64,000 bases of DNA from Eledone cirrhosa (taxonomy: Eukaryota): positions 214,830,001 through 214,894,000 of the forward strand of contig OZ024741.1 in the NCBI GenBank assembly GCA_964016885.1, read 5' to 3'. The stretch's first letter is position 1. Each line of letters opens with the position of its first letter. Of the stretch, positions 3,273-58,262 are shown in pieces. The position numbers were made by a program, and so were the translations under genes. The notes below the pieces were generated by a model. That model searched no databases. It saw only the letters and a list, made by a program, of their open reading frames with translations, and was not told the origin of the DNA.

Positions 3273-3615
3273 ACTTCCTTATATGGGAAGATTGTAGTTG
3301 TCAAGAGGATTGGTCAAAATTTGTAGCAGACACAGAAAAGTCTATCATGGCAGTGGGTGCGGGCTGGGGTTGGCTGAACTTGCCTGTAGAACGATAGGGG
3401 AGTGGGTAGAGCCGGTCAAGCGTAGAAGGTGAAATCTACCCGGCAAATTCTAAGGAATGTGTATGAAATTAGGCCAGAGGAGGTTGGAGAAAAAAGGGGT
3501 TCAGTGCGGTCTGCCCGAGTCTAGAAGTAATTTGTTGACCCTCTAGATTTATGTCCTCGATAATTGAATGGTTAGCCTTTTTATAGGTGGAGTTTAGGCT
3601 GCTCCTGATCAGTGT

Positions 3616-4540
3616 GTGGTATCTGTTCGGGTTGACAACCTCCAAAATGACCTGTGCTACCCATACAGGAAACCAAACGACAACCTGCATTACATCCACC
3701 GCCGCTCTAACCATCCTAGAAACATCACCAATAATCTGGTTAAAAACAACTCCCTCCTCATATCTCGTTTGTCCGCTAATGAGCAGATATTCGAGGAAGA
3801 TGCGCCCCATTACAACCTGACCCTCAAGCGGAGTGGCTTCCGGGAGGAAATATCCTTTAATCCAGCTTCCCTTAGCGGAACCAGCAGGCGACGCCGCCGC
3901 TCACGCCACGTAACGTGGTTCAATCCTCCTCACAATGCCGAGGTGGCAACACCTATCGGGAAAATCCTCTTTAGGCTCCCCAAAAAAACACTTTCCACCA
4001 CAACACCGCTACCACGACATAATCAACAAAAACACTATCAAGCTATCCTACAGCACCAGACCTAAATTCGCACAAAACATCGTCTCCTCAAACAAACTAG
4101 AAACAATCTAGAAATTAGTGGAGAGCTGACCAGGAGGTGTAACTGCCCTGATAGATCTACGTGCCCCCTCAACAACAGATGCCGAGAACGTAACATGATC
4201 TACCAGTGCAATGTGATGACGGACACCTCCAACAAAGCTTATATAGGATTAACCGCTTGTGACTTTAAGACGCGGCTCTACCAACACCGACATACGTTCC
4301 AAAACCCGGTCCATATCTGGGACCTCCAAGATAATAATTAAAACTACCATCTTACTTGGAGCTTACTGTCCAGAGCTAACTCTTACATGGGAGGACGCCG
4401 TCCGAGTAACTTATGCTCAGAGGAAACAGTACAAATGCTGTTTACGAAGGATCAACTCCTAAACAAAAAAGACGAACTGGTAACTGCATGCAAACACAGA
4501 TTGCGGAAGACTTACCTCGCCCTCAAACAGCCTAACGATG
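3616..4540 (+). pseudogene. PLE (Naiad-type) RT C-terminus and GIY-YIG endonuclease, frameshifted
   Basis: Motifs across frames: YRKPNDNLHYIHRRSNHP, TWFNPPH, INKNTIKLSYST, CNCPDRSTCPLNNRC, MIYQC..AYIGLTACDFKTRLYQH, ELVTACKHR. Confidence 0.85.
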
Positions 4541-7210: not shown

Positions 7211-10200
7211 AATGGACTGCATACAGGGAAAAGGTGAAATTAGAAGTCAGCGAAGCTGGTCAAAGATGGAACTAGCAGTTTTGATCAAGGGGTGGAGCCT
7301 GTCTGATGGGTCACCACCAAGCAAAAAGATTACGGAGACCCTGAAGAACCATGAAAAAGAAAAGAAATTGATAAGGCCTATGTCCTCATAGCGCCACATA
7401 TGGCGATGCTAAGCCGTGTCCTTAAGGAGGAGAAAAACGAAGAGAAAGGAGACGAAAAAGAAAAGGAAGAAAACACAAGCACGGACCTGAAAGAAAATGA
7501 GATACCCGCCGGCACAGTCAGGGAGGGCAGGCCGGGCAACCAACAAGTAAACGGTAAAGATGAGAAGCGAAATCACCTTCTGAAGGAGAACCAAACGCAG
7601 AGGGACCAATGGACAACTGTCCAAAGGAAGAACAGAAAGCACTGAGACACTGGGAGCAAGAAAACCCAGGTAATGTGCAAGTTCTTCAGGAACGGGACCT
7701 GCTGGCATGGAGAGACAGGGATGGGCTGAAGATTCGCTCACCCTAGGCCCCAAACGAACCATGCCCATCCTACTCGCGCAACATGCCCCAGCCAAAACCA
7801 AAACAAGTCGCTCCAGAAGTATGCTGATGTCGCGCGTGCCGCACCAACAAGGAGAAGGCATGCTCATGCCGACGAGATATAGATGGCAGCAGCAGAGCAG
7901 AAACATTTTTTAGTGATGGCAGAGAAAATTGTATGACAGCTGACCTGGCTGCATCATTTTCAGAGCCAGGGTCACTCACACCAGCACTCAAGACCACCAC
8001 AATTAAGGGACCCAGAGTGGACGCCGCTGACACCAGACCAGGTGTCATACCGACAGCCTTTGCTGGCACCCCAACAGTCACACCAGTGCTGCTGCTGAAT
8101 GTCAGAGGCCTGGTGAAACTCACTAACACGAGTAAAATGTTCTACCTGGGAGACTTAGCCATAAGCAATCAAGCATTATGCATGGCACTAACCGAAACGC
8201 ACCTGACAAGCAGTATAGCAGATGCAGAAATACATATACCAAAATATACTGTATTTCTTTCGGACAGGAAGGAGAGACCTCATGGTGGGGTTGCTCTGTA
8301 TATCCGTGAAGATGTCACACCAATTGTACTGTTGACACATTCAAACTCACTCTGTGACACACTAATAGTACATATGAAGCAACTAAAGACAGTAATATAT
8401 GTCACATATCGGCCGTCCGATGCCCCCAGTCATGAGGGTAAATTTGAGAATAGCCTCAGTAGGATAGAAGAGGTCCTTGACAAACTGGACCAGGGTCTCA
8501 ACATTCAACTGCTGGGAGTCTTCAACCTGCCAAAGGTCAAATGGCCTGAGGGCCACCTCCTCCCTGGAATGACGTCAATATAACAGAGACAGATGGAATC
8601 CCTGCTGGCCTTCACACACAGGCTGTTCATGGAACAAGCAGTACTCCTCCCAACAAGAGGTGAAAATGTCCTGGACTTCTGTTTTACAAACAACGAAGTG
8701 CTCATCCACAATGTAAAGGTGATACCAACAATTTTTTCGCATCATAACTTAGTAGAACTAATGATATGTGGTCCGAGAGAACCATCAGAGACACAACCAT
8801 CAAGAAGCACCGGGACGTTATCCAGCCTTAATTTCTACAAAGCTAACTGGAAAAAGATCAAGAGAGAAATCCGGAAACAAATATGGAGCGAAAACACCGC
8901 CACACAAGACACCAACACACAATTTCAACACTTCATCACAACGATACACACTATATGCAAGAAGTTTGTCCCGGAAAACAAGGCAAACAGACACAAAAAT
9001 CTTATTCCCAGAGATAGGAAAATCCTCATGAGACGTAGAACCAAGCTCTCAAACCAGTTGAATGCACAACAAGAAAACAAAAACAAGAAGGAATCCTATT
9101 TGAAACATGCACTACTTGACACCGAGATTGCACTCAAAATTTTCCAATGAGAATGAGAGGGCAAAGAAAGAAAGCAGGGCCATAGAAAATATTAAAACAG
9201 ACCCTAAGGCCTTCTTTAAATTTGCAAAAGAAACTGCCTCGGTACACTGCAAGATTGGGCCACTCTTCCATACAAACGGTTCATTAACTGAGAATCCCCA
9301 AGAGATATGTGAAATACTGAACGAACAGTACAAAAGTGTGTTCACATGTCCACTGAGGCACATGGTAAAAAACAAAGCCAGAGGAGTTCTTTGATGCAAC
9401 AACACTACATGGAGAAATGGCGACCATCAACCACATAGACATAAAGTAGGAGGATGTGGTATACGCCATAGATAAAATTAGAACAGACTCAGCTGCTGGA
9501 CATGGTGGATTCCCAGCAGTCCTCTTAAAAACATGTAAGCGGGCCTTTGCAACTCCACTGAAGACGCTCTTCCTACCCAGGGATCTGAAAGAAGGCACAA
9601 TATGCCCTATCCATAAAGGAGGTAGCAGAGCGGAGGCCAAAAACTATAGGCCAATCTCCCTGACGTCGCATATCAGTAAGGTCATGGAGCGAGTCGTCAG
9701 AAAGAAACTGATCACTTTCCTCGAGGAAAATGACCGCCTGACAGGCACGCAGCATGGCTTCCGCCCAGGAAGAAGCCGCCTTACACTACTGCTACATCAC
9801 TACGACTGGGTACTGAAACAACTGCTAGACAGCTCACATGTGGACCTGATATATCTTGACTTTGCGAAGGCCTTTGACAAGGTCGACCACGGAATAATAT
9901 ATCACAAACTACACGGACTCGGCATAACTGGAAAAGTAGGTGAGTGACTGCATGACTTCTTAAATGACAAAAGCCAGAAAGTCGCAGCTAACGGGGCCCT
10001 CTCGAAGAAAACCTCAATAACAAGTGGGGTGCCCCAAGGGACAGTCATGGGACCACTACTGTTTTTGGTGGCTCTCCCAGACATGCCCTCTGTAGTACAT
10101 ACGACATCTCTCACTAGCTATGCTGATGACACTAAGGTAGCGCAGGCAATCAAAAACCCGGCTGACCCTGCCCTTTTACAACAAGATCTGGATGCCATAT

Positions 10201-10534: not shown

Positions 10535-10578
<44 letters not shown>

Positions 10579-10610
10579 AGATCAAAAGATGGTTAAAGGA
10601 GTTCAATATA

Positions 10611-10677
10611 TTTTATTATGCGCATTTCAAAAACAAACATCATCAAACAATAATATTTGTGTTTTCATCAGATAAAA
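10611..10677 (-). ncRNA. Type I hammerhead ribozyme motif (family X)
   Basis: Mirror of 11236-11302. Confidence 0.75.
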
Positions 10678-11235
10678 CAGGAGAACATGATATGAAGGCT
10701 AAAAAAACACTTGTTGATAGTGCAGTTTTAAATCAACATATGAAAAGTGGTTTTAGATTGATGTGTGATATTGGGAAAAATATTTTATTTAGAGAGGGGG
10801 GGAGAGAAAAGGATGAAAAGGGAAGGAGATGAGAGGGAGAGATGGGTGATAGAGAGAAAGAGATAGTTTTTATAACAGAGAGGAGATATATTTTATATAG
10901 AGGGGTTGAAAACCGTTGGAAGATACTGTATAAATTAAAAATTTTGAAAATTAACGAAGGAATTTTCAAAATTTTTAATTTATACAGTATCTTCCAACGG
11001 TTTTCAACCCCTCTATATAAAATATATCTCCTCTCTGTTATAAAAACTATCTCTTTCTCTCTATCACCCATCTCTCCCTCTCATCTCCTTCCCTTTTCAT
11101 CCTTTTCTCTCCCCCCCTCTCTAAATAAAATATTTTTCCCAATATCACACATCAATCTAAAACCACTTTTCATATGTTGATTTAAAACTGCACTATCAAC
11201 AAGTGTTTTTTTAGCCTTCATATCATGTTCTCCTG

Positions 11236-11302
11236 TTTTATCTGATGAAAACACAAATATTATTGTTTGATGATGTTTGTTTTTGAAATGCGCATAATAA
11301 AA
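11236..11302 (+). ncRNA. Type I hammerhead ribozyme motif (family X)
   Basis: TTTTAT-CTGATGA-[..CAAATATTATT(GTTT)GATGATGTTTG..]-GAA-ATGCGCAT-A^ATAAAA with palindromic stem III. Confidence 0.75.
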
Positions 11303-11617
11303 TATATTGAACTCCTTTAACCATCTTTTGATCTTATATTATGCATACTCCAGTCCCACAAACTGTAGAGTGCTTCTTATCCGATATCTGCATTGCTTTA
11401 TTGTACTACAATAAAACTCACCTCCTACATATATATATATATATATATATATAGTAATAATAATAAATTAGAAGACTAAAATCCAAAGAGGGCTCGATAA
11501 GGATAAATATATATCAAATATATAAGAACCGTAGAGCAAATATTTATTAAGAACAGATGAAAGATCCCGTTAAGGGTGAAAGCAGCGATTCTTTGCTTAA
11601 ACTTTAATCTGTTTTTA

Positions 11618-15545: not shown

Positions 15546-15959
15546 GAGATCAAAAGATGGTTAAAAGAGTTCCATGTATTTTATTATGGGCATTTCAAAA
15601 ACAAATATCATCATGCAATAATATTTGTGTTTTCATCAGATAAAATAGGAAGACATGATATGAAGGTTAAAAAACTCTTGTGGATAGTGCAGTTTTAAAT
15701 CAACATATCTTGATTTAAAACTGCACTATCCACAAGTGTTTTTTAACCTTCATATCATGTCTTCCTATTTTATCTGATGAAAACACAAATATTATTGCAT
15801 GATGATATTTGTTTTTGAAATGCGCATAATAAAATACATGGAACTCTTTTAACCATCTTTTGATCTTATATATTATGTATACTCCAGTCCTAGAAACTGT
15901 AGAGTGCTTCTTATCCGATATCTGCATTGCTTTATTGTACTACAACAAAACTCACCTCC

Positions 15960-18236: not shown

Positions 18237-18298
18237 TTTTATTATATATATTTCGGAGGTACTGTGCTGTTTTTTCAGTACGTCCTCGTCAGATAAAA
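18237..18298 (-). ncRNA. Type I hammerhead ribozyme motif
   Basis: Minus strand: TTTTAT-CTGACGA-GGAC GTACTG(..)CAGTAC CTCC-GAA-ATATATAT-A^ATAAAA. All helices pair. Confidence 0.8.
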
Positions 18299-20447: not shown

Positions 20448-21405
<958 letters not shown>

Positions 21406-22496
21406 CGTGTGTGAGTGTAAACACAAATATCAAAGCAAATGACACACCATAATGAAGAAATATATTAGTCTAACGTTGAAATAATTGGAAAGGTGTCTTA
21501 ACATTTCGACCATTAGTCCCGTATCAGGAGATAGAATGAGAAATAAAACATAAAATAGAAAGATAAAGTGCTAGAAGAGGTAGGGACAGAAAACAGTTGT
21601 GCGTTTTCTTCAACCATTTTCGATATTCCTGAGTAAGTCGTGTTTGAAAATACAAAATATATTTAAAGCAAGAATATTAATGGTTTTCCTATACATTTAA
21701 GATCGGAGAATAAGTTCCTGGAATCAACGCCACATATACCACCAATATATACAATTTCTGAAAGTTGTTTACTTAATAAAGTTAATTTATAATTAATTAT
21801 AATTTATAATTAATAGTTTCTGATTTTAGCACAAGGCCAACCATTTTTGGGGAGAGGAAAGTCGATTAAATCGATACCAGTACGTGACTGCTACTTTATT
21901 TTATCGACCCCGTAAGGATGAAAAGGAAAGCTAACCTCGGCAGGATTTAAACTCAGCCCATAAAAGGCAGGATTTAAACTCAGCCCATATGCTGCAAAGC
22001 AAGTTCTCCGATGCTCTACCGATGCTCTACCGATGCAGTCAACACGATAATTAATGAAATACAATGAAATTATATGTGAATATATTTAATTTAGATATTT
22101 ATAAATGAGCGAGACTCAGTCACCCGACCGAAAATCCCGACCAAGCCCATGCTAGCGTGGAAGATAGACGTTAATCGACAATGACGATGATGATGATCAT
22201 ATGTATACTTAGCATCTGAGGAAAATAGGATGTGTCTATATTTCTTTTGTCTGTCCATGTTACATGTACTCAGAATTTAATGAACACTGTATGACTGTCT
22301 ATGTGTGTAGGTGTGTGTGTGCGTGCGTGTGTGGGGGAGGGGGCGCACGCGTGTTTTTATGTGTATTCAGATCCAGACATGTAAATGAATACAAACGAAC
22401 ATACACACACACACACAGATACACAAACACAGATACACACACAGAGATACACACACACACATATATATATATGTATACATATATATATATATATAT

Positions 22497-25405: not shown

Positions 25406-25740
25406 ATTGTATGTATGTGCGAACGCTTGCGAATAAACAGAACGATTCGTAGACGAAAAATGTAATCAATTCGTAAAATACTGTTAATATGATCAATCAA
25501 ACCAGTTATAAAGAACTAAAAAATATAAATCGAAAGAAGTGAAGCAACGATTTTGTGATATATAGGAATGTAAATATATTACCATATATGGTCATGAGCC
25601 TTGACGCGTAAAATGGTTGTTGAGAATAAAGGTCAGACTAAAATTAGGCAACAGGGAATATCATCATATATTGTTAAAGTGATTATTCACCATTGCCAGA
25701 TATTTCAGGAAATATTTCCCCTACTCTCTATCTATCTATC

Positions 25741-28700
25741 GGAAGTCAAGCGATTCGTTCGACGCACGAAGCTACAGCCACATTTTCATCAAACCCCACC
25801 GGCTCCGAACGCTCCAGACCCATTTCTCGCCCTGGGCCGACGACCATCGTCTTGGACGCCGGCACCAGGGCAATTTAGCACCCTGGACGCGTTCGTCGAC
25901 GCCTGCCGTAGCGCAGTAAATCGCTTCGACTTCTGCCACCGTTCCAAACGGCATAACATCTCACGGGGCGAACTCCTCGCTCTCCGCTCCTCCCTTACCC
26001 GAGATGACATCATCAACAAACCGGCGGACAAGGGAGGCGCCGTGGTGGTGTGGTGCGCTGACATCTACACGGCCGAGGCCCCTAGGCAGCTCCGTAACCC
26101 CCTATTCTACCGCCCTCTACCCTCCGACCCACACCAACAACAAGTTTCCTCCACCATCCAACACCTTGTCTCCTCCTCCCTCCTCTCTCCCACCGCTTCC
26201 CACTTCATCTTCCGCACACACCGCACCCCACTATCTACTTCCTCCCCATCTCCACAAACCCGACAACCCCGGCCACCCCATCGTCTCCGCTAGCAACTGC
26301 CCCAAGGAACTCATCTCCGCTTTTCTTGACTCCATCCTCGCCCCCTTGGCAGCACCCTCCATTCCCCCATCCCCTCCACCTCCACCCTCCTTCGCCGCAC
26401 CGAGCTGGTCCTCACCCTCAACTGCTTCTCCTTCTCGGGTGAGTTTTACCAACAGGTCATGGGGGTAGCACAAGAATGGGCCCAAACTATGCCAACCTTT
26501 TCGTTGGCCATGTTGAGGCCCAAATCTTTGCCCGGTATACCGGCCCCACGCCCGAACTGTACGGTCGTTACATCGACGACTGTATCGGATCCACGACCTT
26601 CACCCGAGAACAGCTCGACTCCTTTCTCTCCTTCTTCTGCTCCTTCCACCCCTCTCTCCACGTCACCACCTCTATCTCTACCACCCACGTCCACTTCTTA
26701 GACATCTCCGTCACCATCGACCCCTCCCGCCACTCCCTCGTCCCCTCCGCCTTCTTCAAACCCACTGACTCCCACTCCTACCTCGACTTCACCTCCCACC
26801 CTACTCCCAACTCCTCCGGATCCCCGCCTCTGCAGCGGAGATGCTGACTTTTGAGTGCCACGCCCTTTCACTAGTCAGCCATTTCATCCGGAGAGGTTTA
26901 ACCCCCCCCCTCGTTCACACCACCTTCACTCGCACCCGTGTTGTCCACCGTCCACCACCCTCACCCCACGCCACCGCACACCAACCCACCGTCTCGCCTT
27001 CCCCATCACCTACCACCCTCCACCCTTCCCCTCCACCGCACCATCCTCCAACACCAGTCCGACCCCTCCACCTCCCCCATATTCCTATCCACAGCCCTCC
27101 CCTCCTTCAAACGCACGCGCAATCTCCGCACCCTCCTCGTCTACAGCTCCCTACACGCCAACCCAAACATTTCTTCCTCCCCCCCCCGGTTCCCTTCCCT
27201 ATCCAGGCCTCGCTGCCACACCTGACCCCACATCACCAACACCACTACCTTCCAGGGTCCCAACGGCCACTCTCTCTCTGTCCGGCATGCCTTCCGCTGC
27301 ACCTCCTCCAACCTCGTCTATGGACTTCGCCGCACTCCGTGCACCGCAACCTACGTCGGACAGACTGGACGTCGCCCGGTGGACCGTTTCACTGAACACC
27401 TCCGCGATATTCGTCTCGGCGGGAGTTCCCCCATCGCCCGCCACTTTGCCCCCCCCCCCCCCACGGACATTCCGCCCACCACCTCACAGTTTGTGGCCTA
27501 CTCCAATGCTATGGAACACCCGCCACCCCCTCACAGTCGAAAAACACACTATCTTCACCCTACAGACCAACACACCCCCCGGCCTGAACTCCCCACTCCT
27601 ATTCCTTTAGCCTTCGACCGCCCAACTTTCCACCCCGCACATCACCCACATAACACCACTAACACACTCCTCCATTACACCGCTCCACCCCTTGGCCCAC
27701 CCCACAACTAATAATACTGACACTCATCCAAACACGCACACACACACACCAGTACACTACACTCCCTCCTTCGTCCCCAACACCTTTTCTCTCCCTCTCC
27801 CTCTCCCTCTCCCCACTCCACCTACACCCCTTCACACACACACATCCCACTAACACCTCTACTAATATACACCCCATCCCCCCACATCACCACCTTCCCC
27901 CTCCACCTTTCACACCTACCCATCCTCTCCCCTGTCCACCGCACCTCCGACACACAGACACACAGTCCTCACCACATACCGACCATTCCTCCACCTGTCA
28001 TCCCCCTCTACTGCTATCTCTTCACCCTGCCTTGACCCTCTGACCACTTCCCGTTGCGCGAGCACCCCACATCTTTCCACTTCCGACCACCACCACTAAT
28101 GGATTCCACACCACCGGTCATCGGTCCAGCTATCCACTCTATAACATGAGAAATATCCAACATCTTATCGCACACTCCCCGGAACTACCTTAGTGACTTA
28201 CCCACGAACAAACACTCACATTTGTTTTCGAACCACGCCACCTACATCCACACCACGTATAAACACAAACACACACGTGCGTAACCCCACATATACACAC
28301 TCAGCCTCCCTCCCCACCCTCTGACCCCTCTCTATCCATACGCACGCATTCACCGAATTACACGCCACCCCATGCACACACCTTTTCCTGAACATGGAAC
28401 CTCGTTCTTTCCCAACTCTCAGATTCACATACACACACACACACACACACACGTACACCTACACACATACACAAACACCACCTTCAGCCCTCCCTGCTCG
28501 GACCCCCCGCCTCCCTCTCCCAACTCTACCCACCACTTGTTTATTTTTATGTTTATTTTTATTTTTATTTGTACTTCTGCGATCGTTTTTCCTCCCTTTT
28601 CCCACCCCCCCTTTTTTCTAAATGTCTTTCCACCACTCCCCCACACACCCTCGGAACTATCTTCCTACCCACTTTTCTCCTGATGAAGGGCTTATGCCCG

Positions 28701-30631: not shown

Positions 30632-30647
30632 TATATATATATATATC

Positions 30648-31264
30648 ACACCGATCATTATAATAAATGTTCGGTGAATCCATACGTACATATATATATG
30701 TGTGCATGTATGTATATATATATATACATACTACTGTACGTCTGTATACATATATGTATGTACGTGTACATACTTATATATAAGTAACAGCCGTACTAAG
30801 AGTGGGAAATGAAATTTCGTTTCATTTTTTCCGTTTATCGTTTTCGGTGCACCCGGCCGATTAACCCACTCGATATGCAAATTAGGCTGCTCAGCCGTTA
30901 ATATGCATAAGGAAAGTATATACTTTCAGACGTTCAATCATCTGGCAGGAAGGTATATGTTGCTGACGATAGCTAATAAGGTTGAAACTAGTACAGCGTT
31001 CCTTTGTCAGTGTTGAACAAACGAGCAACGATGGTTGCTAGACACTACGGCTTAATACGTGATGTTTGTTTACACCGAGCATTATAATAAATGTTCGGTG
31101 AATCCATACGTACATATATATATATATATATATGTGTGCATGTATGTATATATATATACATACTACTGTACGTCTGTATACATATATGTATGTACGTGTA
31201 CATACTTATATTTAAGTAACAGCCGTACTAAGAGTGGCAAATGTAATTTCGTTTCATTTTTTCC

Positions 31265-31266
<2 letters not shown>
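30648..31266 (+). mobile_element. Family W: 1.4-mer of a ~425-bp HHR-bearing non-coding unit
   Basis: Direct repeats at 30648-30834 and 31072-31266, with an HHR at 30958-30998 between them. Confidence 0.8.
30958..30998 (+). ncRNA. Minimal type I hammerhead motif (family W)
   Basis: TGTTG-CTGACGA-TAGC(TAATAAG)GTT-GAA-ACTAGT-A^CAGCG. Stem I extends via CTGGCA..AAGG / CCTT.TGTCAG. Confidence 0.7.
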
Positions 31267-31302
<36 letters not shown>

Positions 31303-31304
31303 TA

Positions 31305-32235
31305 TTGGAGCTCTGAAATAGCAATATATATATGGATGTATATATAATGTATTTTGCAATAGACTTTATGCTTAATTAAAAGCATTTTGAAGACCGTAAG
31401 CTATTGTTTTAAAGTAGTGACAAATTCACTCACTTTGATCTCAGCAAACAGGGGAGATAAGCCGACAAGACTTGTTTCGCTTTGGTTAAAGCTTATCAAG
31501 GCCAACTACCCCACCTGTCTACTGAGATCATTGATGTTATATTCTTATAGAAATCTAGTAAATAATTAGGAGCTGATTATGCAGGCAGAAATTAAAAATT
31601 AGAATTGGAGCTCTGAAATAGCAATATATATATGGATGTATATATAATGTATTTTGCAATACACTTTATGCTTAATTAAAAGCATTTTGAAGACCGTAAG
31701 CTATTGTTTTAAAGTAGTGACAAATTCACTCACTTTGATCTCAGCAAACAGGGGAGATAAGCCGACAAGACTTGTTTCGCTTTGGTTGAAGCTTATCAAG
31801 GCCAACTACCCCCACCTGTCTACTACTTGTCACTACTTTAAAACAATAGCTTACGGTCTTCAAAATGCTTTTAATTAAGCTTAAAGTGTATTGCAAAATA
31901 CATTATATATACATCCATATATATATTGCTATTTCAGAGCTGCAATTCTAATTTTTAATTTCTGCCTGACCAACAACCGCTCTGCATAATCAGCTCCTGA
32001 TTATTTACTAGATTTCTATAAGAATATAACATCAATGATCTCAGTAGACAGGTGGGGTAGTTGGCCTTGATAAGCTTCAACCAAAGCGAAACAAGTCTTG
32101 TCGGCTTATCTCCCCTGTTTGCTGAGATCAAAGTGAGTGAATTTGTCACTACTTTAAAACAATAGCTTACGGTCTTCAAAATGCTTTTAATTAAGTATAA
32201 AGTCTATTGCAAAATACATTATATATACATCCATA
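31305..32235. mobile_element. Family V: tandem 300-bp HHR-bearing units followed by an inverted tandem block (retrozyme-like)
   Basis: 31305-31524 repeats at +300. From ~31827 the unit runs inverted with a period of ~315. HHRs at 31460-31503(-), 31760-31803(-) and 32063-32106(+). Confidence 0.9.
32063..32106 (+). ncRNA. Type I hammerhead motif with U3-A8 core (family V)
   Basis: GGCC-TTGATAA-GCTT(CAACCA)AAGC-GAA-ACAAG(T)CTTGT-C^GGCT. Long stem I extension GATCTCAGTAGACAGG / CCTGTTTGCTGAGATC. Confidence 0.75.
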
Positions 32236-32272
32236 TATATATACATATATGTATTTATGTATATACATACAC

Positions 32273-32388
<116 letters not shown>

Positions 32389-33857: not shown

Positions 33858-34211
33858 CTTCTCTCCCGTCTTTCGCCGAAAAGACTTAAGTGAAATAGTC
33901 GCTACTTTAAAACCAATAGCGTAAGGTCTTCTAAATGTTTTTAATTAAACATACGGTATATTGAAAATATACTATACATACATTCATGTATACATCGCTA
34001 TTTCAGAGCACCAATCCTAATACCTAATTTTTGCTGGACCGGCAATCGCTCTGTATAGTCAGCTCCTGATTATTACTAGAATTCTTTAAGAATCCAGCTT
34101 CTATAATTTTCGGCGGAAGAGGGAGTGCGTGGCTCTGATGATCGTCAAACAGCACGAAACAGACTGTTAGCTTCTCTCCCTTCTTTCGCTGAAAAGAAGT
34201 AAGTGAACTGG

Positions 34212-34216
<5 letters not shown>
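33858..34216 (+). mobile_element. Diverged family V monomer (313 bp) with a ~45-bp terminal repeat; HHR at 34131-34172
   Basis: CTTCTCTCCC.TCTTTCGC.GAAAAGA..TAAGTGAA at 33858 and 34171. Body aligns with 31827-32140. HHR reads GGCT-CTGATGA..GAA-ACAG(A)CTGT-T^AGCT. Confidence 0.8.
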
Positions 34217-34283
<67 letters not shown>

Positions 34284-36723: not shown

Positions 36724-37206
36724 CGTTGCCCGGTATATATATATGTTGATTTAAAACTGCACTATCCACAAGTGTTTTTTAACCTTCATATCATGTCTTC
36801 CTATTTTATCTGATGAAAACACAAATGTTATTACATGATGATATTTGTTTTTGAAATGCGCATAATAAAATACATGGAACTCTTTTAACCATCTTTTGAT
36901 CTTATATATTATATATATATATAATGTAGAAGGTGAGTAATATTGTAGAACAATAAAACTATGCATATATCAGATAAGTAGCACTCAACAGTTGGTAGAA
37001 CTGGAGTTTATATAATAAAGAAGAAATCAAAAGATGGTTAAAAGAGTTCCATATATTTTATTATGCGCATTTCGAAAACAAAATCATCCTGGGACAAAAA
37101 CTGTGTATCTGATGAGACAACAATTTTTGTCCCAGGATGATTTTGTATTCGAAATGCCCATCATAAAATATATCGAACTCTTTTAACCATCTTTTAATTT
37201 CTTCTT

Positions 37207-45982: not shown

Positions 45983-47230
45983 ATATAAGATAAAAGGATG
46001 GTTAAAAGTGTTCCATGTATTTTATTATGCGCATTTCAAAAACAAATATCATCATGAGATGACATTTGCGTTTTCGTCAGATAAAATAGGGAGACATGAT
46101 ATGAAGGTTAAAAAACACTTGTGAATAGTGCAGTTTTTAATCAACATATGAAAAGTAATTTAAGATTGATGTGTAATATTGGGACAAAAATGATGGGGGG
46201 GGGGGGGATGAAAAAGAGGAGGAGATGAGAGTAGAAAATTGTGAGGGAGGAGTATAATAAGAAAGGATGAGATAGGAGGAGAAATGGGTGATAGAAAGAG
46301 AGAGATAGCCTTTATAACTGAGAAAAATATTGTTTCACAGAGAGAGGTTAAAAAGCCGTGGGAAGATAATATATAATTTAAAAGAATTTGAAAATTGATG
46401 AAGAGAAAAATTAATGAAGAGAAAAAAATTAAGAATAATGTTGAATTAAGGTTTGTATATTGAAGGGTTTAATAATATGTGCGATGAAAAGAAATTGTTA
46501 ATATGTATCATTAAAAAAAATATATTAATGTTATTAAGGATATAATGTGAAAAGAAGTAGAAGAGTGGATGAATTATGAATTTAAAGGAATTAGTTAGTG
46601 TTTAAGTTTGTTTTTATGTAATGTAATATGTATGCGTAATATATGTAAATAGTATGTTTACAAATGAGCGCAGAAAGCAAAGAAGAAAATAGTGTTTAAG
46701 GAAGAGAAGACTCTAACAACAAAGTATATATGTTTATGAAGTATTTCCTAATGGTAATAATATAATATAATGTAATAAAGGAGATTAGTTAGGGTTTAAG
46801 TTTGTTTTTATGTATTGTGATATGTAATATGTAAAAGTTAGACGAGCATGAAAGGGAGAAAAATATATAATGAATTGCGGAGGAATAATCTAACGTCAAA
46901 AAATGTTTATGTTTACGAAGGATTTTTAAAGGTTATACTATAAAATATTTAAAAGGTAATAATAAGTTTTATGGCCAATGATATGAAGGAAGAAGGAAGA
47001 GTGGTTATATTGTGGTGAGTAATAATAAGAATTGAGAAGTATATAGGAAGAAAAAGTACAGATTAGAGGTTAGAAATTAAAAGAAAAGAGGAAGAAAGGG
47101 AATTGATAAATAGGAATGATATAGAATTTCGTTAGGTCGAGGGGCCAGTATGTTCAACCTGTTATGGTGCCGTTTTAGTAACTGACATTAATAATTATGT
47201 TAATATTTGTTCTATAGATTTGAGTTGTTC
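45983..47230 (-). mobile_element. Longest family X copy (HHR at 46020-46086 plus ~1.1 kb upstream)
   Basis: 45983-46400 aligns with 10572-10960; HHR core is CTGACGA. The sequence continues as a strand-biased, UTR-like tract. Confidence 0.75.
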
Positions 47231-48995: not shown

Positions 48996-50969
48996 CTAAG
49001 GCGGGTAAAATTCCCGAGATCCATGGACGAGTTCTCTCCAGCGGTCTCTGTCCCTCATTATCGCTGCCATATCCTGCATCTCCAACAGACCAGTGTCTGT
49101 CCTTAGGGCATCAACATATGTTAACCTTGGTCTTCCTCTTCTAGTGTGTCCATGTAGGGGCTCCCAAAGGAGCACTGAGTGCAATGTCAACTCTGGATGT
49201 CGGTGAGCATGTCCAGCCAACCTCAGTCTCCTCTGTGTCACATTTGAGCTGACTTTTGGGATGCTCCCATACAGCTCTGAGTTTTTCATCCTCAGTGTAT
49301 ACTGATTAATGTTCAGAGCCATCCTCAGCATTCTCGTGTAGCACCCATCCACCATCTGAGTGAGTCTCTTGGTCAGTGTCCAAGTCTCAGACCCATACAG
49401 CAGCACAGACTCCACTACAGCAATGAAGAGGCGGATTTTCAGGTCTCTACGAAGGTCCGACTTCCACACCGATCTCAAGCTGTGACACGCCGCCCAGGCC
49501 TTGCTCTTCCTCTCAACCACATCATCCTCCGTATTCCCAATCTTTGCTCCCAAATACAGGAAGTCCTCAACCAATTCCAGCGGCTTCCCGCCTACATTAG
49601 TGATCCCCTCTGGCTTCTCAACATTCTCTACCAGATATTTTGTTTTAGTCTCATTCATTCTCAGCCCCACACTCATCGACACAGTCTCAACCTCCCGCAT
49701 CAAATCCTCTGCCTCCTTCACTGTATTTGTCACCAAAACTATGTCGTCGGCAAATTCAGCATCCGATACCTTTTTCGCCCCAACTCTCCTGCTCTGAGCC
49801 GGTGCTACAGTAAAGCCAGTGTCCTGGTGTTTCTCCAGTGCAAGGCGCATACAATAGTCCACTACGATGATAAAAAGGTAGGGAGCCAATGTATCTCCCT
49901 GGAGCACTCCAGCCAGTATCTCAAAGAACTCTGTCATCCCATCAGGTGTAATGACTTGGGCTTTGGTGTTGGTGTAGAGCAGTGATATCAGGTCCACTAT
50001 CCTCTTGGGGATTCCATAAGCCTGTAAGATCTTCATCAGGCAGTAACGGTCCACAGAATCAAAGGCCTTCCTAAAGTCAATGAAAACCATGACCGCAGGA
50101 AGGCACTTTGCTCTAGCTCCCTCTAATATCCTCCTCAGCATCAGGATGTGACTGGTGGTTGATCTACCCTCTCTGAAGCCGTTCTGGTTGTCCCTGAGCT
50201 TCTTCTCCATCTCAGGCTGGATCCTGTTAAGAATCATCCTGTTGAGGGTCTTTGCCACAAGTGATGTCAGTGAGATCCCCCGGTAGTTATTGGTGTTAGA
50301 GAGATCTCCCTTCTTTGGCACTGGGACGATGTTACTGATCCTCCACTGATTCGGGGCAACTCCTTTCTCCAGTGCCCCGTTACAGAACCCCAAGATGATA
50401 TCATCAAAATCACACCTCCTCATCACCTCTGATGCCACTCCATCTTCTCCATGAGCCTTGCCCTCCTTGATCTTCTTCTTGGCTCTCTGAAGCTCCTCTC
50501 TGGTGAAGGGCTCTGTCTCAACATCCAGTTCCTCAAACAGCCGCCTGATCTCCCCAGTGCTCTGGGCTGTGGAGGGTGGCTCTCCTAGTAGGGTCCTAAA
50601 ATAGTCTAGCCATTTCTTCTTCCTATCCTCGGGCCCCGTTCCCTGGATCTGACTCGAACACCTTTTCTTCCTCCCTGTGATCTCGTTGATGATCATCCAG
50701 CTCTCCTTACATCCAGATCTGTCAACCGCTCTCTCCACACTTCTGATCTTCTCTATCAGTGCCTCCTCTCTGACCTCAGTGTAAGCGGTACAGAGCTCTT
50801 CCCTCATCACCTCCACAGTCTCCATCCTCTCCTCCGTAGGATCAGCATAGAATTGGTCCCTGGCAGCTTTCAGGTGTTCTCTAGCTGCACACACTTTTGG
50901 GTTTGCAAAGCTGACGTGCTTCCCTTTGTTCTTTTTCCTCGGCACCAGGGTTTCACTTGCTTTCGCCAC
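48996..50969 (-). CDS. RTE LINE reverse transcriptase (657 aa open frame)
   Basis: [69 protein letters not shown]. Confidence 0.93.
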
Positions 50970-51915
50970 TCCTCGTCACACTCTCCTCAGTCCATCCAAT
51001 ATCTCTCTCCTCTGACTCTCCACACAGAGCACTAAACCTGCTTCTCACTTCCACTGTGAACCTCTCCTGTAGCTTATCATCTTCCTTGAAAGCTCCCCAG
51101 TCATAGATTGTTCTCCGGGGCTGAGCCTTGCTCTTTCTTAAGCTCACGCGGACCTCACTCATAACAAGCCGGTGGTCACTACCCAGTGTACTGAAATAGC
51201 TGTATGGTTCCGTGTTCAGAACACTATTCCGCCACTTTTTCCTCACCAGAATGAAATCAATCTGGGACTTGGACAGGTGCATATCTGAGATGTAGGTCCA
51301 CATCTTCCCCAGATTCTTCCTAAACCTTAGGTTGGTCGCCATCAAGTTCGCCTCCAGGAGGGTGTCTCTCAGTAGTCTTCCATTTCGGTTGGTGTTGTTA
51401 TGGAAGTACCAGCAAGGATCTTCACTGCCCTCCTTACTCAGATGTGCATTGAAGTCCCCCAAAACAAGCAGGATATTGTGTTCCTGAGTGGTGTTGACAG
51501 CTCTACACACCTCCTTATGGAACTCCTCGGCATTCACATCACTGTCCCCCTCGGTTGGACTATAGGCTGAGATGACTGTCAGTCTTGGGTTTCCATTGAA
51601 GGTCACCCTCAACACTCGCGGGGAGATAGGCATTATTTCCCTCACCAACAGATTGGTTTTTGCACTGAACACAAAACCCACTCCTCCTACTGCAGCATTT
51701 GTTGTGTTCTTCACTGCCGATGTAGTGATGAGCTGGCTCTTCCTCCCGATCATCACACTCCTCACGGGCTCATCGTGTAGAATCCTGTGTTCTTGGATCG
51801 CAAGTATCTGTATACCACTCTCCTCGAACAGATGTCCCAACTCCTCTCTCTTCTCCAGCGTTCGAATAGTCCTCACATTCAAAGTGCCCATTTTAATGGC
51901 TCTTCTGCAGGACAA
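50953..51915 (-). CDS. RTE LINE apurinic-like endonuclease domain (5' half of a frameshifted ORF)
   Basis: GTLNVRT, LAIQEHR, GGVGF, ISAYSPT, LGDFNAH, NRNG, SQIDFILV, GSDHRLV. Confidence 0.9.
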   Translation of the reverse strand: MSCRRAIKMGTLNVRTIRTLEKREELGHLFEESGIQILAIQEHRILHDEPVRSVMIGRKSQLITTSAVKNTTNAAVGGVGFVFSAKTNLLVREIMPISPRVLRVTFNGNPRLTVISAYSPTEGDSDVNAEEFHKEVCRAVNTTQEHNILLVLGDFNAHLSKEGSEDPCWYFHNNTNRNGRLLRDTLLEANLMATNLRFRKNLGKMWTYISDMHLSKSQIDFILVRKKWRNSVLNTEPYSYFSTLGSDHRLVMSEVRVSLRKSKAQPRRTIYDWGAFKEDDKLQERFTVEVRSRFSALCGESEERDIGWTEESVTRSGESK

Positions 51916-52552
51916 AACTGCATTCTTTATATTTGTCCTGGGTATGACATTAAACTACATCCAGTGGCAAGGCTCCAGTTCGGGAGTTCAGGAGATGTGG
52001 GGAATGTGGAGTTACCCCTTAGTTGTCATGACTCCCAGGTCTGCCCTGGCCCGGGGTGGTAGTACCTGTTAGGGCTCCATTTATGGGTTAAATAACTACC
52101 TTATTCGAGTGGCGCCGGTAAGGTATTGTCAGCCATTGAAAAGAAATATGGAGAGTCGATCTAACAGCACTAGGGTTAGAGCCCCTAATTACACTGTCAA
52201 GGAGCAGCCTGGTCGTTATGACTCTGCTGGCTTAGAGCCACAGAGAGGGCCAGTGGATGATGGATCAGCTGTCTCTGAGACAAATATGTATATATATATA
52301 CATATATATATGTATATATATATATACACACACATATATATGTATATATATATGTATATATATACATGTACATATATATATATATATACATATATATATC
52401 AATTAGAAAAAGTGTGCATCAAATTACGCCGAGGCCGAGATTATGTGATACAAGATTACATACATTCTTTTCTGAAGAAAGTAATTGTATATGTATGTTT
52501 CTATATATCTATATATATCTATCTATCTCTCTCTCTATATATATATACACAT

Positions 52553-56307: not shown

Positions 56308-56359
56308 TACTATATATATTTCGATGATAGCCATTGAATGGCTATGACCTCATCAGGCA
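56308..56359 (-). ncRNA. Type I hammerhead motif with weak stem I
   Basis: Minus strand: TGC-CTGATGA-GGTC ATAGCCATT(C)AATGGCTAT CATC-GAA-ATATATAT-A^GTA. Confidence 0.6.
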
Positions 56360-57436: not shown

Positions 57437-58262
57437 TTAACCATATAGCTTGAGGAAAGTTCCCGTCCTTAGGTGTCTGCAGGCACCGAATAAGTCGGTC
57501 CTTCTGTTTAATAGCTTGGTTCCGCCATGAAGTATCTCGAGTGTCTCACTAAGAAAGAGATTGCGAATACCAGACCCGCCTCTGTCTGGGGGAACCTTTC
57601 TAACCACGGACCAGACCAGAGAGTGCGGGGTCTTTTCAAGTTTGAGCTTCCAGATCAATTCAAAAAGGGCCGTATATTCCTCTTATCTATTCTGTTAAAG
57701 GAATTGCGATTGTTATACCACCGAGCTTTGAAGCTCGTCTCTGTGGTTCCAATGTAGTAGTTTGCTCCGAGTTAGGGGTTGTGACCTTGCACCTGTAGAC
57801 TACGTTTTTCGTCATGCATTCATTACTAAGGGGGCATAATGATGGGGCTCTGCAATTACATGACTTCTTAAGCCCCACCACATGTACCGCGTGGTTACCA
57901 TCACTCGGGGTTGGCTGGGTAGCCTCCGCAATCAGCACAGGATCGTTGGGTTCCGGTGTGCTAGTTGGGCCTGTCCGGGTTCCGGTGCGTCCCGCGTGCT
58001 GGTTCTGTTGGGTGACTCCTGGGTTTACGGTGGTATTAGAGGCAGTGAGCCTATTCCTATTTATGTCCACTATGTGCTTGGCTACGGAGCGTGTGGTTGA
58101 GTAGGAAAGTTTCACCGTGTGCCTGTTGAATATTTTATGGTACTTGTGGGCCCTAAGGAAAAATGTATCCAGTACGCTAAAGAATGTTCTAGCCAGGCTG
58201 GTACGTAGACCCACCGAGTACGGAGGGTTATACTATGTGACCCTCCTGGTCCTATTCTTGCG
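57437..58262 (-). pseudogene. Naiad-type PLE linker and GIY-YIG endonuclease, frameshifted
   Basis: YNPPYS, HKIFNRHTVKLSYST, CNCRAPSLCPLSNECMTKNVVYRCKV, IGTTETSFKARW, IWKLK, LLNRRTDLFGACRH. Confidence 0.88.

Follow-up and report, generated by a model that had tools for sequence, protein, structure and literature searches.

The locus at 31268..32388 of the window, by which we mean the whole 64,000-nucleotide stretch of Eledone cirrhosa DNA analyzed here, is best explained as a two-armed insertion of a non-autonomous retrozyme in a (TA)n tract, with a Penelope-like element (PLE) acting in trans as the likely source of the reverse transcriptase (RT) and endonuclease. We assign this reading a probability of roughly 0.8. 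Judged from its sequence, the inserted element is a young, non-coding 316-nt hammerhead repeat that belongs to the known class of animal non-LTR retrozymes. Animal retrozymes and their link to PLEs have already been published, and the class itself is ordinary; a literature search, largely outside subscription journals, returned no paper on the 316-nt family.

Anatomy of the locus and its repeat family

The locus is a single insertion into (TA)n with head-to-head arms of 521 and 416 bp. Beyond a left (TA)n target microsatellite (31268..31301), arm 1 occupies 31304..31824 on the minus strand and runs from m257 to its long (tail) end at m160, in a unit numbering in which m1 is the first base 3' of the predicted cut. 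Arm 2 lies on the plus strand at 31827..32242, runs from m41 to its short end at m140 and contains an intact 316-nt unit (31827-32142), so that the end pair of the locus is m160 (arm 1) with m140 (arm 2). The two 5'-truncated arms meet at a joint with 2 extra bases (31825..31826), and a (TA)n/(TG)n microsatellite (32243..32388) forms the right flank. The original prediction had placed a strand flip near 31827, and the switch is indeed found at 31824/31827; the array that it described is not a long one, however, with only 1.65 units on the minus strand and 1.3 units on the plus strand.

All three type I hammerheads that had been proposed are present. Two lie on the minus strand with cores 300 nt apart, at 31460..31503 (core 31499..31464, U3:A8 with a palindromic helix III, predicted cut 31464^31463) and 31760..31803 (core 31799..31764, predicted cut 31764^31763), and the third lies on the plus strand at 32063..32106 (core 32067..32102, predicted cut 32102^32103). 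The plus-strand ribozyme is closed by a long hairpin (32037..32129, z −6.2), whose 16-bp stem (32037-32052 / 32114-32129) includes an A-run with recurrent A-to-G changes (32046-32050). A strict scan counted 3 hammerhead motifs in the window versus 0 in each of 100 shuffles; Rfam at gathering thresholds gave no hammerhead match in the window.

The 300-bp unit first read from this DNA is not that of the family, which has a unit of 316 nt; across the 3.0-Gb genome, this locus is the only place with the 300-nt junction. The spacing stems from a private 16-nt deletion with short microhomology in arm 1 (31582..31584, minus strand; a single genome match), which likely arose in that one arm during or after insertion. 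The stretch of about 14 extra nucleotides noted in the inverted unit does exist (31967-31982, plus strand), but it is 16 nt long and represents the family norm, absent from one unit of arm 1. Because the 300-nt junction is unique in the genome and the other arm retains these 16 bases, a 300-nt circle is not the family template, and the precise 300-nt circle once suggested as the source of this array reduces to the private deletion of one unit.

Beyond the locus, exact 35-nt cores number at least 358 in the genome (control, 0), and a first look gave 1047 candidates for the 316-nt family. Same-strand core spacing is mostly 316 nt or a multiple thereof among the first 100 of the 358 cores listed, and the 68 loci aligned to the 316-nt reference diverge from the majority by 1.18%. 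This genome-wide copy structure, one of the checks originally proposed, is thus one of dispersed and mostly 316-nt-spaced copies. Each unit carries one type I hammerhead and has a GC content of 34%; stops interrupt all six reading frames and leave no ORF, which bears out the earlier remark that no protein family is recognizable in the unit. The proposed retrozyme signature is supported as well, in the form of tandem type I hammerhead units without an ORF in hundreds of young dispersed copies. Related sequence is also present in three organisms (four runs).

The ribozyme core has U3...A8 in place of C3...G8, helix III is an 11-nt palindrome with a one-base center, and helix I is extended into the 16-bp stem; the original prediction mentions neither the core variant nor the palindrome. 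U3:A8 is found in 199/200 units of the 316-nt family and in 59/60 of one sibling, C3:G8 in 32/36 units of another sibling family, and a palindromic helix III specific to each of three families accompanies this core covariation. On this comparative sequence evidence, the ribozyme motif is conserved by covariation. The core mutation rate (0.0041 versus 0.0073) was set aside as evidence of constraint because the loci had been picked by their exact core. Folding predictions give −5.2 kcal/mol for the active monomer fold versus −9.1 kcal/mol for an alternative, and −10.1 kcal/mol for a helix III self-duplex versus +1.2 kcal/mol for the hairpin. Since the active monomer fold is disfavored and helix III prefers the self-duplex, cleavage is predicted to be poor in the monomer and expected to be dimeric or protein-assisted. 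The monomer as a circle has a stable predicted fold (z −6.7). In vitro, 8/9 Xenopus retrozyme dimers remained uncleaved, according to the available text of a bioRxiv preprint (10.64898/2026.07.22.740005).

Several neighboring elements are related to this repeat or share its surroundings. A different tandem hammerhead element with a period of ~428 nt (30647-31270), whose motif we read by eye near 30959-30999, lies in the same microsatellite and directly adjoins the insertion; the two families also adjoin each other at three other loci (L002, L027, and L082). The segment at 33889-34217 (plus strand) is a copy of an older sibling, ~75% alike, with a ~315-nt period, a C3:G8 core and 3170 first-look candidates; this sibling family has the same two-ended architecture as the 316-nt family. 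Hammerheads of other families lie at 10571-11342, 15585-15828, 18243-18292, 36810-36864, 46026-46080, and 56311-56356, the last belonging to the 3' end of a PLE whose ORF fragment is at 57687-58232. The features at 25598-27711 (+), 3598-4065 (+), 48996-51954 (−), 7828-9947 (+), and 20514-21464 (−) are presumably fragmented PLE-like ORFs, an almost complete LINE with frames for endonuclease and RT, a remnant of another LINE, and a mariner-like transposase remnant.

Insertion ends and the PLE footprint

The 3' ends of the arms fall into two classes 26-33 nt apart: a short class near m140 (m140 itself in 48/113) and a long class spanning m160-177 (m166, m171, or m173 in 49/113). Nearly all of these ends run into TA (100/109). 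The 68 loci hold 44 head-to-head joints, of which 27 show an overlap, 5 are blunt, 9 have 1-7 extra bases, and 3 have more than 30. When the end pairs of 61 joints are classified, 56 combine a long with a short end, a single joint is short at both ends, no joint is long at both, and the remaining 4 include an end that belongs to neither class (P 4e-16), so that long and short ends are paired in 56/57 classifiable two-armed copies. In the joint count, the local duplicate L066 enters twice, and the duplicates L008 and L009 were removed; no arm of L082 exceeds the cut-off, and L199 was left uncounted with neither end in a class. At the short end lies an AT run of 10 nt with homology to the target, which blurs the exact short start point. 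Two older sibling families likewise have two end sites, ~27-30 nt apart, and the 18 joints of one sibling family comprise 13 long with short, 1 short with short, 1 long with long, and 3 others.

The 5' ends, by contrast with these fixed 3' ends, are scattered in a pattern of variable 5' truncation. They fall at the cut site in 3/139 cases versus 4.4 expected, with no pile-up, and 190/206 cut-site junctions are intact; both observations argue against a cleaved linear monomer as the main template. No significant stalling of 5' ends was seen at the stem (P 0.33 and 0.06). One copy contains a 27-nt duplication starting at m1 (L141:1736-1800), possibly a trace of a cleaved end with a template switch.

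Truncation at the 5' end with an inverted adjacent copy, a one-sided tail, and an AT-rich or microsatellite target are all features of PLE-type insertion and are all found in this family. PLE insertions are described as partial tandems with an inverted 5'-truncated copy and a bias toward (TA)n, with a tail of 30-40 bp confined to one of the two ends (Craig et al. 2021, PMC8557442). In vitro work with a PLE protein showed cleavage and extension of both strands, with RT starts at two neighboring internal sites downstream of the hammerhead that mark the limits of the tail (Frangieh et al. 2024, PMC11167929). The inversion is the usual architecture of PLE insertion and not a peculiarity of one array. 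Under our preferred reading, both target strands would be nicked and each would prime cDNA on the same repeat RNA, with synthesis beginning at two internal sites 26-33 nt apart, one per target strand. Each cDNA would pass one or more ribozyme sites and then stop at random, and the two cDNAs would be joined, mostly via short overlaps. The template would be continuous across the cut site, whether as a multimer that was never cleaved or as a circle closed by ligation. With its two exact start sites, this young 316-nt RNA, which encodes no protein, offers a test system for the formation of PLE tails and inversions.

PLE ORFs are abundant in this genome, with 48,313 first-look candidates. None is attached in sense in the 67 loci with arms, so the case raised by the original prediction, in which the unit would always accompany a PLE ORF, does not apply to these loci. 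Among 20 outer 5' flanks, none runs in sense into a shared PLE body, and only other repeats are common at the junction. Homology to a partner pseudo-LTR was absent from 30 loci of one PLE family and from 12 longer loci, which contain solely nested or abutting copies; the sampled PLE family has its own ribozyme and 3' end, unrelated to the 316-nt family. Other PLE remnants near copies have no attached homologous repeat, and 30-nt "shared end" matches with PLE loci proved to be plain TA repeats. Because no partner homology was found, the argument for PLE mobilization is built on the footprint and not on homology. Pfam named none of six PLE-like fragments, with one weak match below the cut-off; we take these six to be PLE from their RT and GIY-YIG motifs together with the flank analysis.

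Elsewhere, a third sibling family (U3:A8, a perfect 12-nt palindromic helix III, 2701 candidates, an 82% relative) is joined head to head with a 5'-truncated PLE ORF (L130:312-787). As a single case whose PLE has a different ribozyme, this joint was set aside as evidence of a partner; it reflects either two RNAs inserted as a chimera or an insertion accompanied by a deletion. Other two-armed palindromic elements (L151, L153, L155, and L152:5950-6340) lie directly in the 3' TA tail of PLE copies, an arrangement which indicates that TA tracts collect nested insertions.

The PLE traits of the family, namely its ends, tail, inversion, and U3:A8 variant, could also be explained if it were the orphaned pseudo-LTR of an autonomous PLE, truncated debris that does not propagate itself. 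The available text of a recent preprint relates vertebrate retrozymes to PLE pseudo-LTRs (10.64898/2026.07.22.740005), which favors such an origin. We nonetheless consider it unlikely and, as an account of what the family is at present, largely refuted: exact 316-nt tandems cross at least two cut sites in 41/139 arms, 0/20 outer 5' flanks continue in sense into a shared PLE body, and the family has haplotype lineages of its own. Far less probable still is a local satellite or palindrome that formed by DNA slippage and fold-back and acquired a ribozyme-like motif by chance. Duplication and conversion at the DNA level do affect some copies, but the 358 exact cores are dispersed genome-wide, the ends are fixed and paired, and in three families helix III varies together with the core; genome dispersal and the end rule together refute the local reading. 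Mobilization of a non-autonomous retrozyme by a PLE in trans continues to be our preferred explanation.

Possible circular and multimeric templates

Whether the template was a circle or a linear multimer can be approached through the variants that the units share. If every insertion were a more-than-unit cDNA of one ligated 316-nt monomer circle, all units of an insertion should agree, and the m259/m261 haplotype is indeed uniform over units and arms in 38/42 insertions (maximum of 14 in 2000 permutations). In one insertion (L086), two consecutive units that have no other variant in common carry a haplotype unique in the genome, and another (L067) behaves likewise with a haplotype found in one other insertion. 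The absence of a 5'-end pile-up at the cut site and the stable predicted fold of the circular monomer (z −6.7) are also favorable, and circular retrozyme RNA has been reported in coral, mussel, and axolotl (PMC7229834). Against an exclusively circular template stand unit-specific variants that recur in register across arms in 8 insertions (L001, L006, L015, L061, L062, L076, L136, and L145). The present locus is among these eight: its two outer units have C (31362 and 32204), whereas G occupies the matching site of the two inner ones (31662 and 31888). Variants are shared at the same index in 12/168 comparisons versus 3/340 out of register and 194/69,807 between insertions. The predicted active monomer fold (−5.2 versus −9.1 kcal/mol for the alternative) also speaks against it, as does higher-order duplication at the DNA level in long arrays (L062, L065, and the 26-unit L193), on account of which array length was rejected as proof of a circle. 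The longest of these, a single-arm array of 26 units of the 316-nt family at L193:637-8880 (G000:C1, ~293.635-293.643 Mb), contains six-unit higher-order repeats, and every full unit carries a marker at the helix III center. The rolling-circle copying proposed in the original prediction is therefore favored by the uniform haplotypes but not by the in-register variants, which include those of this very locus; as the sole route, it is rather improbable.

We judge the converse extreme to be no more probable, namely that uncleaved linear multimers are the sole templates, with a dispensable ribozyme and with uniformity arising from homogeneous sources and DNA-level duplication. It would account for the in-register variants and for the weak cleavage predicted, the 26-unit array could yield long transcripts, and unprocessed RNA is reported as the main substrate of the anole PLE, for which ribozyme mutants inserted normally (PMC11167929). 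However, the marker of the 26-unit array (m310 A) is found in few other insertions, which argues against that array as the main source, and several haplotypes extend over every unit of arrays that are short and young and have otherwise retained private variants (299 private). Arm-to-arm conversion could also produce in-register sharing; a sibling locus (L186) whose ends are both short and whose arms share three terminal variants looks to have been converted in this way. The in-register variants thus fit either a linear multimer or arm-to-arm conversion. Overall, a mixed cycle of circles and multimers fits best: we place about half of our confidence in the use of both kinds of template and about a quarter each in circles only and linear multimers only, and the present locus leans toward a multimer. 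This system allows a direct test of whether retrozyme circles serve as templates; this step was put forward in 2014 and again in 2020, and we found no demonstration of it in the papers cited here.

The 16-bp stem provides a further marker. A-to-G changes at m260, m262, or m264 are common to all covering units in 7/8 cases, compared with 5/339 for other variants (Fisher 5.5e-11), in loci that were not picked for these variants. Outside the stem, A-to-G and T-to-C changes are equally frequent (0.34 and 0.35 per site). G at m262 occurs in 28 units on four haplotypes, and G at m264 in 5 more units on two haplotypes. A is taken as the ancestral stem state because a sibling family carries A at these sites. 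Counted by hand on a tree without recombination, there are about ten A-to-G origins at four neighboring sites against two other changes, a contrast that is overstated because the sample contains too little of a lineage marked by a change other than A-to-G (m310 A); the count used six-site haplotypes from 86 insertions, including 15 loci fetched for bearing these variants. The sibling that carries A here and has the same A-run, its loci chosen by likeness to an all-A query, has G in 2/59 units at one site and 0 at the other three; in the other sibling family, three stem sites vary between A and G opposite U.

In squid, repeats are reported to be edited in all tissues (PMC9068888). The stem changes may represent ADAR edits of the RNA made before it was copied, a proposal that we advance tentatively and put slightly below even odds. 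All of the stem changes merely create G-U pairs, so tolerance combined with template switching could mimic the pattern. If the changes are ADAR edits, they would amount to RNA editing being written into a germ-line genome; our literature search, mostly outside subscription journals, found no paper on edits fixed in retrozyme copies. A complete life cycle built on this proposal is more doubtful. In it, ADAR would deaminate adenosines of the 16-bp stem in the germ line, and a dimeric PLE enzyme would copy one RNA into both ends of a break from two fixed starts. A monomeric circle used as template would repeat the edit in every unit, and a linear multimer would mark one unit in both arms.

Relation to known retrozymes and PLEs

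The non-LTR retrozymes described in metazoans (Cervera and de la Pena 2020, PMC7229834; Li, Clavereau and Pollet 2026, 10.64898/2026.07.22.740005) have the same organization into tandem units of 150-450 bp with one type I hammerhead each. They are likewise non-coding and low in GC, dispersed as monomers to multimers, and co-occur with PLEs; coral retrozymes also show a short indel between unit variants, as here. The sequence features that define a retrozyme are all present in the 316-nt family: the period, one hammerhead per unit, the lack of coding capacity, the dispersal, and a GC content below 50%. Expression, cleavage, and circles are known in published systems, whereas the 316-nt family is described here from its DNA sequence, and its U3:A8 core sets it apart from the published retrozymes as described in these sources. 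In the available text of PMC7229834, the words "inverted," "microsatellite," "octopus," and "cephalopod" are absent, and that of the 2026 preprint includes no mollusc and no description of two-armed ends.

The hammerheads of PLEs (Cervera and de la Pena 2014, PMC4209133) are also similar in structure. They share the U3-A8 core covariation, reported in Schistosoma, and likewise have a palindromic helix III that is thought to require a dimer; pairs of hammerheads on opposite strands are found 100-700 bp apart, as in the 316-nt family. The helix III described here is longer (11 nt), however, and helix I extends into the 16-bp stem. Unlike autonomous PLEs, the 316-nt family has no RT-GIY-YIG ORF, and neither the unit frames nor the 67 loci contain such an ORF between pseudo-LTRs. 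Whereas start sites were used irrespective of strand in vitro in the available account of the anole PLE, with a start non-homologous to the target (PMC11167929), the 316-nt family combines one short and one long end in 56/57 copies, and its short start has AT homology to the target. The insertions of endonuclease-bearing PLEs nevertheless show the same truncation, partial tandems, inversion, ~30-bp tail, and AT-rich or (TA)n targets as those of the 316-nt family.
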